This document shows positions 86 through 23,292 of a stretch of 23,292 nt of DNA, piece after piece. Made by a program: the position numbers and the translations under genes. Every line of letters begins with the position of its first letter. The stretch's first letter is position 1. This DNA is from a virus (taxonomy: Duplodnaviria > Heunggongvirae > Uroviricota > Caudoviricetes): IMG/VR virus record IMGVR_UViG_2541047850_000002. One strand, given 5' to 3'. The notes under the pieces were generated by a model. That model was not told the DNA's origin, made no database searches, and saw only the letters and a list, made by a program, of their open reading frames with translations.

Positions 86-104
86 CGTATTGGGGTTATA
101 AAAT

Positions 105-3100
105 TCAGCTAATCGTGATGCCTGCAGTGGCTTTCTTCATCACAACAACCAGCAAATCGCTGATACTTGCTGTGGGATACCAGCCATTTACCCACCATGC
201 TGATACAGAAAACTCCAGCGTCATGTGGCCGCGACCAGCAGGCATATCAATAACACCACTGTAAACCAGCGTATTATCCATCGCGGTACGGTTATAAATT
301 TCAGCACCGTTTTTCTTCACTATCAGGCGGCATGACGAATAAGTATCGCTGTTCTCCCGCTCATGTCTGGCACCGCTGAAAGCCACCGCCGGAATAACAA
401 TCTGCCGGTTAAACGGCTGATCGTCATAAACCCTGACGGTAATGGTTCCTGATGGCCAACGCTCCGGTGCCCGGGAGTCACGAGGGAAAGCCTTACCCAC
501 TGTTTTAACGAGATCGCCTTCAATCTGGTTTGCAGACAGTTTCCCTCTGATGACACAGTTCTCGTTAATGGTGACATTATTGAGCGTGCCGGTATTCGCC
601 GTGATGGCTCCACTGATATCCGCATTGCGGGCTGTCAGCCTGCCATCCGGCGTCAGGGAAAACGTCGGAGGATTGCCGGATGACGTGATGCTCACCGCAA
701 ACAGTCGCTTCAGGAACACGTCGTTCATGAACAGCTGATTCCCCTGCGCCACAAACAGCGGCGTGGTGTTGCCGTTCTCCGGGGTAATCATCGCAATGCG
801 ATCGGCCTGCAGCAGAATGTTACTCAGGGTCTGACCATCAACATCCTCAATCCCCGCACCAATCCCGGCCACATAGGGAATACCGTTTTTTGTTTTCTGC
901 ACCTTCAGCATATACATGGCATTCAGCTCATTGCGCGTGTCTGACTGAACCCGCTGGATTTGCTGTATGGTCACGGCCTGGTCACCCAGCTTTTTATCCG
1001 TGGTCGAGGTAATTTCACTCCCTTTTTTATCCACGTACTGGCGGACCTGTGCTATCTGTCGGGCGTTTTCTGACTGCCCCTGGCTGACAGTCTGTGAGAT
1101 TTCACTGCTCACCCGGTCCACTTTCTGGCTCACCTGCGCGATGGCCAGTGTCTGATCCTCATTCTTTTTCGCAACCAGCTGCGTGAGGCTGTTTTCCGCC
1201 TTCCCGATTTTCCGGGTCACTTCTGCGATATCCGTGTCCATCCGCTGACGGATATCTTCTTCCAGTTGCGTGACCTCCGTACGCAGCGCTGAAGCATCAA
1301 TGCGCTCTTTCAGTGCCTGACCCAGAAGCGTCTCATCTATCAGCCCCCGGAAAATTTCCAGATACCCTTCACCATCATTGCTGGGCTGCCCGCTGGCTTC
1401 CACAAAAGCAGATTTTCCCACCAGGTTGACGCTTCGCACGTAAAACCAGAAATCCGTCCCCGGCTTAATCCGGCTCCCCTGGACAGTCCACTGACTGCCG
1501 GTCCCCAGATAACGGGCAGATTTTTCCACCTGTGCTGTGTTCGTGATGCGTTTTTCTGAGAACCAGAATTCAAACTGTACCGTCGGGTCATACACCGCAA
1601 GACGCGGGACCGCCGTTATCTGAAAATACCCCGGCGTCAGCTCAATGGTGGCGGGTTTTGCAGGTGCGTTAATCCGGAACGATACCGACGCCGGATCGCC
1701 CTGCTGTCCCCGGGCATTTACCGCCCGGACCGTCAGCGTGTAACGCCCCAGCGCCAGCTGCCTGAAGCGGTAAGTGGTTTCCGCTGTCCGGGCCGTGCTG
1801 ACCAGCCGCTCACTGCCGTCATCCGCTGTTACGGTCAGACGGAGCAGGAAGCTCACGCCCTTCACCACCTTCGGCGTGTCCCAGCGCGCCAGCACCTGAT
1901 ATTCCCCGCTGTCTGCGGTGACTTCGGCGGTCAGGTGCTGCACCGCTGGCGGCGTGACACCATTCACCGTGCCGCTCTGGTCGCCGTCAAAGTGCGCTCC
2001 GTTATCCACGATGGCCTCTTTTTCCGGTACATGCTGCACGGCGGTGATGGCATACGCACCGTCATCGTTCTCCCGGATACTCACACAGCGGAACAGGCGC
2101 TGGCGCAGCGTCGGCAGCTTCAGCCCCCACACGCTGTATTCGGCAACGCCGTCAGGAATACGGCTCACTTTCACCTTCACGCCGTCGGTGACGGACTGGA
2201 CCTCCACGCTGACCGGATTCCCACTTCCGTCAACCAGGCTTATCAGCGTGGTGCCGGAGGATGACAGCATGATTTCACGGTCGAGCGTCAGCGTCCGGGT
2301 CTGGCTGTTCACCGCCAGCACGCGCCCGCCGGTGCTGATACCGGCATAGTCATCATCACAGATTTCAATGACATCGCCCGGAACATGGCGAAGCCCTTCT
2401 GCGCCGACGCTGAAGTCCACGGTCTGCGTTTCCAGCAGTTCTGTTTTAATCAGCCACAGCCCGGCGCGGTGTGCCTGCCCCCGGCTGGTACAGCCAAAGG
2501 CATCCATCTTCGTGACGTTACGACCGTAACGGGCAATGGCCTGCGTGTCCTCCACAAGCTCTGTTGCCGTCTCCCAGCCGTTATCCGGGTCAATCCAGTT
2601 CACCTCAACGGCATTATGGCGGTCCTTCAGGGCGCTGAAGCTGTAGTGGAACGGCGCGCCATCATCCGGCATCACCACATTACTGCGGTTATAGGTCCAC
2701 ACCTTATCCGACGGTCGGTCCTGCACGAACGTCAGCGTCTGCCCGTTCCATACCGGCATACAGCGCATCGCCGAGCAAAAATCACTGAGCACATCCCACG
2801 CCTTGCGCTGTGTGGTCAGGTACGCATTACAGGTGATGCGCGGCTCCGTGCCGCCAAAGCCGTCCGGCACTGACTGGTCGCAGTACTGGCCGATGACATA
2901 CAGCGCCCATTTATCCACATCCTCTGCACCAAGACGTTTCCCCATGCCGTAGCGCGGATGGGTCAGCATATCCCACAGACACCAGGCCATGTTGTTGCTG
3001 TATGCCGGTTTAAACGTTCCGTCCCAGATACCGCTGTATTGCCGCGTCTGCGGGTTATAATTCGACGGCACCTGCAGAATACGCCCGCGCAGATGATAAT

Positions 3101-3803
3101 TACGGCTCACCTGCTGGCTGCCGAACTGTTCCGAGTCCACCTGTACGCCGACCAGTGCCGTGTTCGGGTAGCACTGTTTCACATCGATGATTTCGGTGTA
3201 TGACGACCAGAGCGTTTTGTTCTGCAGCTGGTCTGTGGTGCTGTCCGGCGTCATCCTGCGCATCCGGATATTAAACGGGCGCGGCGGCAGGTTATCCACC
3301 ACCACCGAGGCCAGATACTGCGAGGTGGTTTTGCCTTTAATGGTGATGTCTTTTTCCGTCACCCAGCCACCATTACGCTGTATCTGAACCAGCAGGCGGA
3401 CTTCCGACGGATTCCGGTCACCCTTTGAGGTGGTTTCCACCAGTGCCTGCACACCGAAGGTAAAGCGCAGACGGTCGATGTTTGCCGACGTGATGGTGCG
3501 GGTGATCGGCGTGTCATATTTCACTTCTGTACCGAGCACCGTCTCGGAGCCGGAGGATTCAAAACCTTCCGGCGGTGTCTGCTCCTGCTCACCTGCCCGG
3601 AACACCACCGTGACGCCGGAGATGTTGGTATTCCCCTCACTGTCCAGCACCGGCGTACTGTTCAGCAGCACGCTTTTTAATCCATCCACCGGACCTTCAA
3701 TCGGCCCTTCGCTGATGGCATCAATCACACTCAGCAGTTGCGTGGACTTCAGGTTGTCCTTCGCTTCGCGCGGGGTATGCCCCTTACTGCTTCCTTTGCC
3801 CAT
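105..3803 (-). CDS. J: Tail tip / host specificity protein J (central tail fibre), 1232 aa
   Basis: N-terminus [37 protein letters not shown] matches my recollection of lambda J; large size; position at distal end of tail operon after I. C-terminal ~250 aa look divergent from lambda (receptor-binding region). Confidence 0.93.
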
Positions 3804-21429: not shown

Positions 21430-21566
21430 AGCCTCACCTCCGCAGCGAACGGATGGCGTAGTTATAAGGGGAGCGAAAAAGAAAGAATGCGCGATTGCGC
21501 AATATGGTAACGTCAGGGTATTATCCACTGGCTGAATAGATCACTTCACGTTTTTTGTTCCTTGCC

Positions 21567-21594
21567 GCCCGTATCCATATGCGGGCTTTTTTTT
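21567..21594 (+). terminator. Intrinsic terminator oriented for + strand (GCCCG...CGGGC + T8)
   Basis: Seen in sequence: GCCCGTATCCATATGCGGGCTTTTTTTT. Confidence 0.45.
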
Positions 21595-21600
21595 GCATGT

Positions 21601-21630
21601 AAAAAGGCCCCAACACATGTGCGTGGGGCC
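21601..21630 (-). terminator. Intrinsic terminator oriented for minus strand (GGCCCCA...TGGGGCC + T5), back-to-back with the + strand terminator
   Basis: Seen in sequence: minus strand GGCCCCACGCACATGTGTTGGGGCCTTTTT. Confidence 0.45.
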
Positions 21631-21830
21631 TGAGAGTATACATGGTTTCAGTCAACTGCATGGTGCCGGGTGCCTCCCGGTGAATTCAGTACCAGCACCT
21701 GAATCCGCGATTATCCCATATACCTACTCGCTGATTGCCCCTCCGCACAGGGGGATTCACCATGCCAGTTTCTTTTAACAAACTCCCCGCAAAACAGACA
21801 ACTGTCAACCGTCTGAATTGTGAGACATTT

Positions 21831-21856
21831 AAAAAAAAGGCCCGCAAAAGCGAGCC
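21831..21856 (-). terminator. Intrinsic terminator immediately 3' of the tRNA cluster (7-bp stem with one G-U, UUUU loop, T8)
   Basis: Seen in sequence: minus strand GGCTCGCTTTTGCGGGCCTTTTTTTT. Confidence 0.5.
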
Positions 21857-21870
21857 GGGAAAAATAAGTC

Positions 21871-21947
21871 TGGCGCGTTGTACTGGATTCGAACCAGTGA
21901 CCGATTGCTTAGAAGGCAATTGCTCTGTCCGGTTGAGCTAACAACGC
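21871..21947 (-). tRNA. tRNA-Arg (anticodon UCU), CCA encoded, 77 nt
   Basis: Hand-folded cloverleaf: acceptor GCGTTGT/ACAACGC, D-arm GCTC/GAGC, anticodon stem ATTGC/GCAAT with loop CTTCTAA, T-arm ACTGG-TTCGAAT-CCAGT, discriminator G, CCA. Confidence 0.85.
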
Positions 21948-21960
21948 AGGGTACAGATAA

Positions 21961-22037
21961 TGGACCGCCATCGAGGACTCGAACCCCGCGCAACCAGCTT
22001 CGAAGGCTGGTGCTCTATCCTGATGAGCTAATGGCGG
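21961..22037 (-). tRNA. tRNA-Arg (anticodon read as UCG), CCA encoded, 77 nt; atypical C1-G72 acceptor pair
   Basis: Hand-folded: acceptor CCGCCAT/ATGGCGG, D-arm GCTC/GAGC, anticodon stem CCAGC/GCTGG with loop CTTCGAA, T-loop TTCGAGT; anticodon assignment by hand only. Confidence 0.7.
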
Positions 22038-22044
22038 TATGTGA

Positions 22045-22120
22045 TGGTGGCCCTTGCTGGATTTGAACCAGCGACCTGGCGATTATGAGTCGCTCGCTCT
22101 CACCACTGAGCTAAAAGGCC
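22045..22120 (-). tRNA. tRNA-Ile2-like (anticodon CAU, lysidine-type) or tRNA-Met; ileZ/ileX-like, 76 nt
   Basis: Hand-folded; sequence GGCCTTTTAGCTCAGTGGTGAGAGCGAGCGACTCATAATCGC...GGTTCAAATCCAGCAAGGGCCACCA closely resembles E. coli ileX as I recall it. Confidence 0.8.
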
Positions 22121-22146
22121 GGGCCGAAAATAATAATCAGATGAAA

Positions 22147-22860
22147 TCAAAAATCAAGCCCTTGCATAGATACATATCTGTCTGGCGGGAAGCCATAATA
22201 GCGGTGAAATACAGAGATAAAGTAGGATCTACTTGAATAACCGCATTTTGCTGCTACAGCCTGTCCATATCCATGCCGGGAACATAACATATTTACAGCA
22301 ACCCGCATCCGTTCCTCAAGTAACAAATTACTGAACCTGAGACCTTCATCCTTGAGTTTTTTCTTTAACAAGCTCTCACTCATATGCAACTGTAGAGCAA
22401 TCGCACCAAGCGTCCAGCTTGCTGATATATCTGTTTGAATTATCGCTCTGACTTTGGCACTTATACTGGATACACATCCACTTAAAAATAATGACATCCG
22501 TTCATCTGATTCAAACAGCGACAGGCAGGCCATCATAAGAAACATATCCGTGGTCTCTCCGGAAAGTCTCTGACTGGTAATTAAAGCCACAGTCAACGCA
22601 GGATTGTTGGGTTCCAGCAACAAGTAAAGCGGAATGTCAGTCAGAGGACCTCTCGTCAGCTTATGCTGGCTTTCCAGATATTGACTTACTATAGAATGGC
22701 TTATATCGACAATTTTAACTTTGCCATAATGCATAAGGAAAAGCTCCCTGATGCATTTGGTGGCCAGAACGACTGAGCCGGGCTTAAGTGACAATGTATC
22801 CTTTTCAAGAAAAATATTAATTGGGGAACAAACCATGATAACTGAACAGATAGCAGTCAT
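22147..22860 (-). CDS. AraC/XylS-family transcriptional regulator, 237 aa, AT-rich (moron)
   Basis: C-terminal dual HTH signature typical of AraC family (...LLKKKLKDEGLRFSNLLLEERMRVAVNMLCSRHGYGQAVAAKCGYSSRSYFISVFHRYYGFPP); visibly AT-rich relative to phage genes; own promoter-like sequence upstream. Confidence 0.8.
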   Translation of the reverse strand: MTAICSVIMVCSPINIFLEKDTLSLKPGSVVLATKCIRELFLMHYGKVKIVDISHSIVSQYLESQHKLTRGPLTDIPLYLLLEPNNPALTVALITSQRLSGETTDMFLMMACLSLFESDERMSLFLSGCVSSISAKVRAIIQTDISASWTLGAIALQLHMSESLLKKKLKDEGLRFSNLLLEERMRVAVNMLCSRHGYGQAVAAKCGYSSRSYFISVFHRYYGFPPDRYVSMQGLDF

Positions 22861-22895
22861 TATAATTTTACTTTAATTAGCAATCGGTTAGCTTA

Positions 22896-22926
22896 ATTAT
22901 AGCCCCAAAAAGTAAATTCTCATCAA
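22896..22926 (-). promoter_or_regulatory. Putative sigma70 promoter for the AraC-family gene (-35 TTGATG, 19-bp spacer, -10 TATAAT)
   Basis: Seen in sequence on minus strand: TTGATGAGAATTTACTTTTTGGGGCTATAATTAAGC, ~35 nt upstream of the ATG. Spacer slightly long; unverified. Confidence 0.3.
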
Positions 22927-22954
22927 CACATAAGCAAATGACTGACAGGTGCCG

Positions 22955-23194
22955 CTAACACCCACCAGCCGCCCATTTACCACAAATAAAAAAGCCTTCA
23001 GGACTGAAGGCGTCTGTAACAACCGAACTGATAGTCTGCCAGACCCGCATAACCAGCTGGGTCAGTATTAACTGGCAGCGCTCGCGTGAAAGGTACGTAT
23101 TCTGCGCAATCTCCCCGACCGTCGCCGGTTCGGTGACGCTTAATTCATCAAACACAACTCTGGCGGTTTCTGTCATATCCTGCTGTTTTAGCAT
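22955..23194 (-). CDS. Small ORF (79 aa from ATG 23194, MLKQQDMTETARVVFDELSVTEPATVGEIAQNTYLSRERCQLILTQLV...) with HTH-like motif; alternatively a non-coding leader/terminator region
   Basis: HTH-like segment ATVGEIAQNTYLSRERCQLIL; but a strong terminator-like hairpin lies inside the 3' end of the ORF ~40 nt before the stop, which argues against full-length translation. Confidence 0.35.
   Translation of the reverse strand: MLKQQDMTETARVVFDELSVTEPATVGEIAQNTYLSRERCQLILTQLVMRVWQTISSVVTDAFSPEGFFICGKWAAGGC
22986..23011 (-). terminator. Intrinsic terminator-like hairpin (GCCTTCAG...CTGAAGGC + T6)
   Basis: Seen in sequence: minus strand GACGCCTTCAGTCCTGAAGGCTTTTTTATTTG; could be tR'-like terminator of a short leader transcript. 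Confidence 0.4.
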
Positions 23195-23233
23195 GTCTTT
23201 TTCCCTTTTCCGGTTAACGTGACACACCAATAA

Positions 23234-23292
23234 CTATTGTCGAAAAAGCCAGCAAGCTGAAAGACAGGTATTCACCGCCACCAGCGCGTTTA
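23234..23292 (-). CDS. 3' end (last 18 codons, ...NALVAVNTCLSACWLFRQ*) of an upstream gene running off the window; identity unknown (position is where a Q-type antiterminator would be expected)
   Basis: Open frame from window edge to TAG at 23236..23234 on minus strand; positional inference only. Confidence 0.2.
   Translation of the reverse strand, partial: NALVAVNTCLSACWLFRQ

Follow-up and report, generated by a model that had tools for sequence, protein, structure and literature searches.

A probable Psr-type moron in the late-operon cargo slot of a lambdoid prophage, preceded by a frameshifted gene for a predicted winged-helix protein

The stretch of DNA that was analysed, which is called the window throughout, has a length of 23,292 nt, and the locus under study lies at positions 22147-23230 on its minus strand. 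The features are collected in Table 1. The same gene order was found in the window, in the Sakai prophages Sp4 and Sp11 and in the phage phiSTEC1575: the antiterminator gene Q, a terminator, a small ORF, another terminator, a promoter, the psr gene for an AraC/XylS-type regulator and the ileZ-argN-argO tRNAs. In Sp4 and Sp11, psr occupies the same slot as in the window, and the lysis genes come behind the tRNAs. Q itself lies outside the window and was seen in a 100%-identical genome (NZ_CM185023.1, E. coli B2.3), where 227 bp separate the small ORF from the end of an upstream gene for a 273-aa antitermination protein that has its own terminator behind it. The insertion between Q and the tRNA-lysis block that the first-pass annotation had described is thereby confirmed, with the homology breaks described below as the limits of the inserted cassette. 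The reported gap of 26 nt between the psr stop codon and the first tRNA was also found. This tRNA, which has the anticodon CAT and ends at 22120, is a tRNA-Met according to ARAGORN but a tRNA-Ile in RefSeq, the latter corresponding to the ileZ type, and the candidate promoter that overlaps the psr stop codon lies about 10 nt 5' of it. The tRNAs are followed by an Rfam STnc100 element and a holin gene, and toxin genes are absent from the window. An Rfam search of positions 22121-23292 returned zero sRNA families. The HnrS sRNA was considered as the occupant of the interval between Q and psr and was rejected, as its gene is hosted by the prophages Sp9, Sp10 and Sp12 (PMC13502914) and not by the psr-carrying Sp4 and Sp11. 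Among 5426 complete E. coli genomes, 725 had a match to the module, counted as a place that covered at least 80% of a 1493-base query (window 21800-23292: tRNAs, psr, small ORF). The close relatives of the window locus are human blood, urine and stool isolates.

Table 1. Features of the psr locus and its surroundings (positions in the window).
Feature	Position	Strand	Description
Small ORF, 79 aa as read	22955..23194	-	Frameshifted allele of a 65-aa protein
Intrinsic terminator, natural end of the small ORF	22984..23011	-	7-bp G+C-rich stem, loop that holds the TGA, T-tract
Second conserved hairpin	22930..22976	-	Last block in common with the methyltransferase-carrying phages
psr cassette (moron): promoter, leader, psr	22125..22925 (approximate)	-	Homology break points
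Sigma-70-like candidate psr promoter	22896..22923	-	ATGAGA-16 nt-TATAAT; 10/12 matches, conserved
psr-like gene, PsrA/PsrB family	22147..22860	-	Intact AraC/XylS regulator; 237-aa ORF, ATG start
Promoter-like element overlapping the psr stop codon	22130..22157	-	TTGATT-16-TATTAT; kept in Sakai Sp4 and Sp11
tRNA trio: ileZ-type (CAT), argN-type (TCG), argO-type (TCT)	21871..22120	-	ARAGORN/RefSeq
Intrinsic terminator behind the third tRNA	21830..21856	-	-14 kcal/mol, z=-3.7

The 237-aa product had been described as an AraC/XylS-type regulator, which proved correct. Both Pfam domains were found above their gathering scores in residues 155-229 (HTH_AraC with 46.5 bits against a cut-off of 26.6 and HTH_18 with 41.9 bits against 33.6), and the C-terminal part of about 100 aa contains the two helix-turn-helix motifs by which AraC/XylS proteins are recognised. 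The best solved relative is the DNA-binding domain of GadX (3mkl, E=7e-20), and in PHROGs the protein matched phrog_1450 (E=1.4e-92). The first-pass annotation considered the individual family member to be beyond the reach of the sequence, but it can now be named. Ungapped alignments over 237 of 237 residues showed 88% identity to ECs_1087 of Sakai Sp4 and 90% to ECs_2191 of Sakai Sp11, while these two share 91% with each other. ECs_1087 carries the name psrA (PMC13502914) and was compared as the full-length 237-aa ORF, for which the Sakai record annotates a shorter start. As the two Sakai copies, at 91% identity, are about as similar as PsrA and PsrB are reported to be (90%; PMC10877973), ECs_2191 is presumably PsrB. 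The locus tag used in the reviews, Z1789 in OI-50, has no simple correspondence with the Sakai prophages, and psrA was placed via PMC13502914. The gene was also sought in Sakai Sp6 and Sp14, where it was not present. The window protein has the level of similarity of about 90% that links PsrA with PsrB, as well as the Psr position in a lambdoid prophage from the Q antiterminator to ileZ-argN-argO, and its sequence assigns it to the Psr family as an uncharacterised allele. This agrees with the earlier proposal of a prophage-borne AraC regulator of the kind that rewires its host.

The proposed comparison with characterised AraC regulators separated the 88-90% identity to PsrA and PsrB from 37% to a PatE-like protein (ECs_0287) and 30-44% to the others: 35% to GadW, 30% to YdeO of K-12, 30% to AppY and 41-44% to GadX and EnvY, in the last two cases in the C-terminal (DNA-binding) half only. 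The best NCBIfam model was the YdeO equivalog, which aligned from residue 1 and scored 102 bits against a cut-off of 348, so that neither the cut-off of NF007407 (YdeO) nor that of NF007432 (GadX, 90.7 bits against 500) was reached. An identity as YdeO or GadX was rejected on account of these scores, and one as PatE because of the 37% identity to ECs_0287, which was taken as the PatE counterpart from its position in Sakai Sp1. The sequence comparisons point to a YdeO/GadW-like AraC protein that is neither YdeO nor GadX. PatE (Z0321), YdeO, GadW, GadX, AppY and EnvY belong to the same AraC subfamily, with an N-terminal domain of the YdeO/GadW type and a dual helix-turn-helix, and their genomic contexts are unlike that of the window. 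All six have ties to acid resistance or stress regulons, and PatE and AppY are prophage-borne. The window protein forms a 90%-identity cluster of its own, and RefSeq labels it merely as "helix-turn-helix domain-containing".

The likeness to the known Psr systems extends beyond the protein. PsrA (ECs_1087/Z1789) and PsrB (Z2104; presumably ECs_2191) have the same length of 237 aa, and their Sakai loci agree with the window in the position from Q to ileZ-argN-argO, the small ORF, the terminator and the promoter. The window allele differs from PsrA and PsrB by 23-28 substitutions, most of which are located in the N-terminal domain, while a few fall in both predicted recognition helices (K167, D171; R211 versus W in PsrA). 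The prophages themselves are not the same. In the window-type prophage of NZ_CM185023.1, the interval from the lysis genes to the terminase has no annotated pch gene (PchABC family), in contrast to Sakai Sp4 and Sp11, and a nanS-p gene is not located behind the tRNAs, unlike in the PsrA/PsrB prophages of O157:H7. The presence of pch regulators and effector loci on psr prophages is an association reported in EHEC and does not define them. The phage phiSTEC1575-Stx2k (OQ243220.1) also has the small ORF, psr and the tRNAs as one module, with 95% nucleotide identity and an AraC-like protein that is 95% identical to the regulator; there stx2k lies behind the tRNAs, where the window has the STnc100 element and the holin gene.

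The visible AT-richness of the gene that was remarked upon earlier is confirmed by a GC content of 0.38-0.43 over positions 22150-22900, compared with about 0.47-0.55 in the flanks. Together with the weak Shine-Dalgarno sequence before the psr start codon, it could indicate that psr is a silent, decaying passenger, either H-NS-silenced or non-functional in its host and without a regulatory role. Truncated copies of psr occur in some relatives, e.g., in strain 90-3040, and there are many partial homolog entries, though these are mostly contig ends or shorter start-codon calls. However, the 237-aa frame is intact, and the YdeO model aligns from its first residue. The dN/dS against PsrA and PsrB is 0.24-0.26 overall; the DNA-binding half is at 0.13 and the N-terminal half at 0.44-0.52. 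The identical protein was found on 337 contigs. Moreover, expression of psrA and its regulation have been reported for Sakai (PMC13502914). Given the dN/dS and the intact frame, we regard psr as a maintained gene under purifying selection and not as a pseudogene, and a silent passenger seems unlikely.

Upstream of psr, the near-consensus TATAAT and the promoter proposed with it are present as an element that is kept in the other psr loci (Sakai Sp4, Sakai Sp11 and FDAARGOS_144) and is absent from the phages that carry a DNA methyltransferase. The promoter scan as a whole was at chance level, with 4 sites against 2.9 +/- 1.9 in shuffled sequences. In phiP27, SfV and mEp460, a gene for a DNA methyltransferase of about 350 aa comes next after the small ORF and its terminator. 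Homology between these phages and the window ends at about 22926, just before the -35 element, and returns a few bases 5' of the first tRNA. Because of these break points, psr and its promoter can be described as an exchangeable cassette of about 0.8 kb, which makes it a classic moron. Judging from these alignments, the slot alternates in its cargo between psr and a DNA methyltransferase. The second conserved hairpin, which is the last block before the cassette, was tested for covariation and showed no compensatory pairs but only one-sided G.U/G-C changes, with a fold z-score of -1.5.

The small ORF in front of the cassette is of interest because a strong terminator hairpin had been observed inside its 3' end. 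The hairpin is present (stem 23011..22994, T-tract to 22984, about -10.8 kcal/mol), and it is kept in all relatives that were compared. When the window is aligned with close relatives, one G is seen to be missing from it between 23048 and 23047 (TTATGGCGGG to TTATGCGGG). The intact gene encodes 65 aa and stops at a TGA at 23000..22998, inside the loop of the hairpin. In the deleted frame, reading passes through the hairpin up to a TAG at 22955, so the terminator appears within the ORF because the 1-nt deletion moves the frame past the original stop codon. Through the frameshift, the predicted beta-hairpin wing, which makes up the last 16 residues, is lost, and 30 unrelated residues stand in its place. 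In the identical genome, PGAP treats 22998..23194 as a TrmB-family pseudogene with a frameshift. Sakai ECs_1086 of Sp4 has the same 79-aa sequence, from which it follows that the deletion is an inherited allele and not a sequencing error. Position 23230 corresponds to the TTG start of a 91-aa extension of the small ORF; this and a 106-aa N-terminal extension, both of which appear in some annotations, were rejected, as 1- and 3-nt indels just upstream of the ATG break the frame in relatives.

With the missing G restored, the small protein is only a few residues off phiP27 L23, SfV orf47 and Sakai ECs_2192 (phrog_331, "TrmB family transcriptional regulator"), which represent the same gene; these are intact, lie after Q and end at the terminator as in the window, while the window and ECs_1086 share the deletion. 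The match of the small ORF to phrog_331 in PHROGs had E=6e-37. The first-pass annotation had offered another reading of the 79-aa region, namely a short leader transcript of the pR'/tR' kind. In full, this would be a Q-dependent late leader without a gene, a 6S-like RNA with its 3' end at the hairpin (22984-23011). The position shortly after Q and the good intrinsic terminator at the end of the region would suit such a leader. However, a distinct terminator lies directly after Q and upstream of the small ORF (L001 10539..10524) and is annotated as a terminator in SfV, and the small ORF is preceded by an AAGGGA Shine-Dalgarno sequence. Homologs of 63-65 aa with 77-98% identity were found in five genera of Enterobacteriaceae: Escherichia, Salmonella, Klebsiella, Citrobacter and Buttiauxella. 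Of the 23 nucleotides at which phiP27 and SfV differ, 19 are in the third position of their codon, and 19 codons are changed synonymously against three non-synonymously; additionally, the SfV gene has a 3-nt deletion that keeps the frame. These substitutions of the coding type leave a leader RNA as a most improbable account of the region and indicate that the small ORF family is a real protein-coding gene under purifying selection.

AlphaFold modelled the 65-aa protein as three helices followed by a beta-hairpin (pLDDT 86), i.e., a predicted winged helix. Foldseek matched the model to the winged helices of IclR, MarR and PadR with TM scores of 0.70-0.78 and marginal E values of only about 1e-3. 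The winged-helix families of Pfam matched solely under the threshold, TrmB with 17.8 bits where the cut-off is 25.6 (E=0.003), and PDB sequences searched with a profile of the small protein yielded weak matches alone (E of 0.1 or worse). Its small size (about 7 kDa) and its constant position immediately upstream of psr would suit the ANR-type arrangement that had been offered as a speculation or, more widely, any dedicated partnership with the regulator, be it as an ANR-like anti-activator or as a controller of the cargo similar to C proteins. The ANR family (Aar, Rnr) indeed shares with the small ORF the small size and the AraC-family neighbour. The ANR signature consists of A10, E14, A22, W26, A29, W43 and R47 on three predicted alpha-helices (PMC4983702). 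In contrast, the window protein contains no tryptophan and thus neither W26 nor W43, and it is predicted to fold as a winged helix that includes a beta-hairpin, not as three helices. Its gene is also independent of an AraC neighbour: it precedes a DNA methyltransferase and not psr in phiP27, SfV and mEp460, and it was found in many Stx2 phages without psr. Moreover, the window shares the frameshift with Sakai Sp4, and psrA is functional there all the same. A dedicated partnership is therefore extremely unlikely. Based on the model and the neighbours, the 65-aa protein is better described as a predicted winged-helix phage protein that precedes whatever cargo fills the slot. A broader idea, namely that it controls whichever cargo is present, psr or methyltransferase, is quite improbable.

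Whether the 1-nt-deletion allele is a product of decay or a selected variant was considered separately. If it was selected, the 79-aa product, which keeps helices 1-3 and has a new tail, could have an altered role, or ribosomes that cross the hairpin could weaken termination and cause more read-through into psr. The exact 54-mer of the frameshift allele was found in at least 349 complete E. coli genomes, and the allele adjoins psr in all four loci that were inspected. Additionally, the small-ORF segment is near-identical in the window and Sakai Sp4, although the adjacent psr proteins differ by 12%. On the other hand, the intact allele, represented by a 55-mer, is about three times commoner (1149 genomes) and likewise adjoins psr in other strains, and descent and recombination alone can explain a common allele. 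The ribosome on the intact allele also stops within the hairpin, so the difference between the alleles may be small. A selected variant in either form seems rather doubtful, and its regulatory form, in which ribosomes would pass the hairpin and a further 40 nt and couple upstream transcription to psr, is quite improbable.

Taken as a whole, the locus is very probably a Psr-type moron in the late-operon cargo slot of a lambdoid prophage. It would consist of an AT-rich cassette with its own sigma-70 promoter and the 237-aa regulator, seated downstream of Q, of a tR'-like terminator and of the winged-helix gene with its terminator, and immediately before the tRNAs and lysis genes. The 79-aa ORF would not be a partner of the regulator but a one-base-deletion allele of a conserved 65-aa winged-helix protein. 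For the window allele itself, we infer the use of the promoter, the DNA targets and the phenotype as follows. In the lysogen, the cassette's own promoter would drive psr; once the prophage is induced, the Q-antiterminated late transcript would cover the gene as well, as all elements from Q to the lysis genes share the late strand.

PsrA and PsrB are known to activate gadE and yhiF and to repress type III secretion, and PsrB binds the hdeA and gadE promoters directly (PMC10877973, PMC8565820). Both raise acid resistance, and they lower the type III secretion encoded by the LEE indirectly, through GadE (PMC10877973, PMC8565820). As far as a review summarises their work, Tree et al. observed further Psr homologs in EPEC and NMEC (PMC10877973). 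By analogy with PsrA and PsrB, the most likely function of the window allele would be the activation of acid resistance through gadE and hdeA: the protein is expected to bind both promoters and thereby turn on the GAD regulon for acid resistance. Where the host has a LEE, GAD activation would lead to indirect repression of type III secretion, but this branch may be irrelevant here, as the close relatives are isolates from blood, urine and stool of humans.

Elements of this kind, with their position and function, were described before for EHEC, while the window allele is uncharacterised and generically annotated. Our analysis places a protein with a generic RefSeq label under the Psr family name as a third allele group. 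Carriage of the Psr module is also seen to be common beyond EHEC, with matches in 725 of the 5426 complete E. coli genomes. If the allele activates GAD as PsrA and PsrB do, carriage of the prophage could raise the acid tolerance of gut-commensal and extra-intestinal strains.

The small ORF upstream of psr, the gene encoding the AraC/XylS regulator of the PsrA/PsrB family, is present in the window as an allele with a 1-nt deletion (window 23047/23048), which had an exact match in 349 complete E. coli genomes compared with 1149 that carry the intact allele. When the window was compared with Sp4, a psr-carrying prophage of O157 Sakai, the small-ORF segments differed at only one of 240 nt, but the adjoining psr genes differed by 12% at the protein level, which indicates a recombination breakpoint between the two genes. 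The features that surround this junction and their counterparts in the related loci are listed in the table.

Coordinates of the features around psr and in the corresponding loci of relatives
Feature	Sequence	Position	Strand	Placement or state
Hairpin, 12-19 bp	window	22930-22976	-	just 3' of the small-ORF terminator
Promoter-like TTGATT-16-TATTAT	window	22130-22157	-	overlaps the psr stop codon
First tRNA	window	22045-22120	-	
STnc100	window	21595-21794	-	between the post-tRNA terminator and the holin gene
DNA methyltransferase, ~350 aa	phiP27 (L011)	665-1723		in the slot held by psr in the window
DNA methyltransferase, ~350 aa	SfV (L010)	667-1719		in the slot held by psr in the window
DNA methyltransferase, ~350 aa	mEp460 (L012)	667-1719		in the slot held by psr in the window
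psr	E. coli 90-3040 (L018)	2135-2533		truncated
Q-psr intergenic region	E. coli GN02050 (L002)	2562-3129		several single-base insertions

The first tRNA was assigned by ARAGORN to Met (anticodon CAT). For most genomes, RefSeq lists this gene as tRNA-Ile, and for some as tRNA-Met; it belongs to the ileZ type known from the Stx-phage tRNA clusters. Sakai Sp4 and Sp11 have also kept the promoter-like element, the 3' end of which lies approximately 10 nt 5' of this tRNA; the element may serve as a dedicated tRNA promoter. Neither stx nor a nanS-p esterase gene was found in the window's prophage (window 21529-21870 and positions 8400-9070 of L001, the locus of the identical E. coli genome). In close relatives, a nanS-p esterase gene is located 3' of the tRNAs, whereas here STnc100 and the holin gene occupy this position directly. 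The Rfam match to STnc100 (RF02076) was full-length, with 140 bits compared with a gathering score of 47; the opposite strand carries a partial "hypothetical protein" pseudogene in the PGAP annotation.

E. coli 90-3040 illustrates that the module has decayed in some strains: its psr is annotated at just 132 aa, and the adjacent Q gene carries a frameshift. The insertions in E. coli GN02050, which distinguish it from all of the other copies, look like a homopolymer assembly error rather than biology.

The hairpin is common to the psr-carrying and the methyltransferase-carrying phages and is the final block that they share ahead of the cargo slot. Its sole changes among the phages were from G.U to G-C, and the comparison of both kinds of phages gave no support for covariation. 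In phiP27, SfV and mEp460, the methyltransferase gene immediately follows the same small winged-helix ORF as in the window, which makes this slot a hotspot of recombination that holds alternative cargo.
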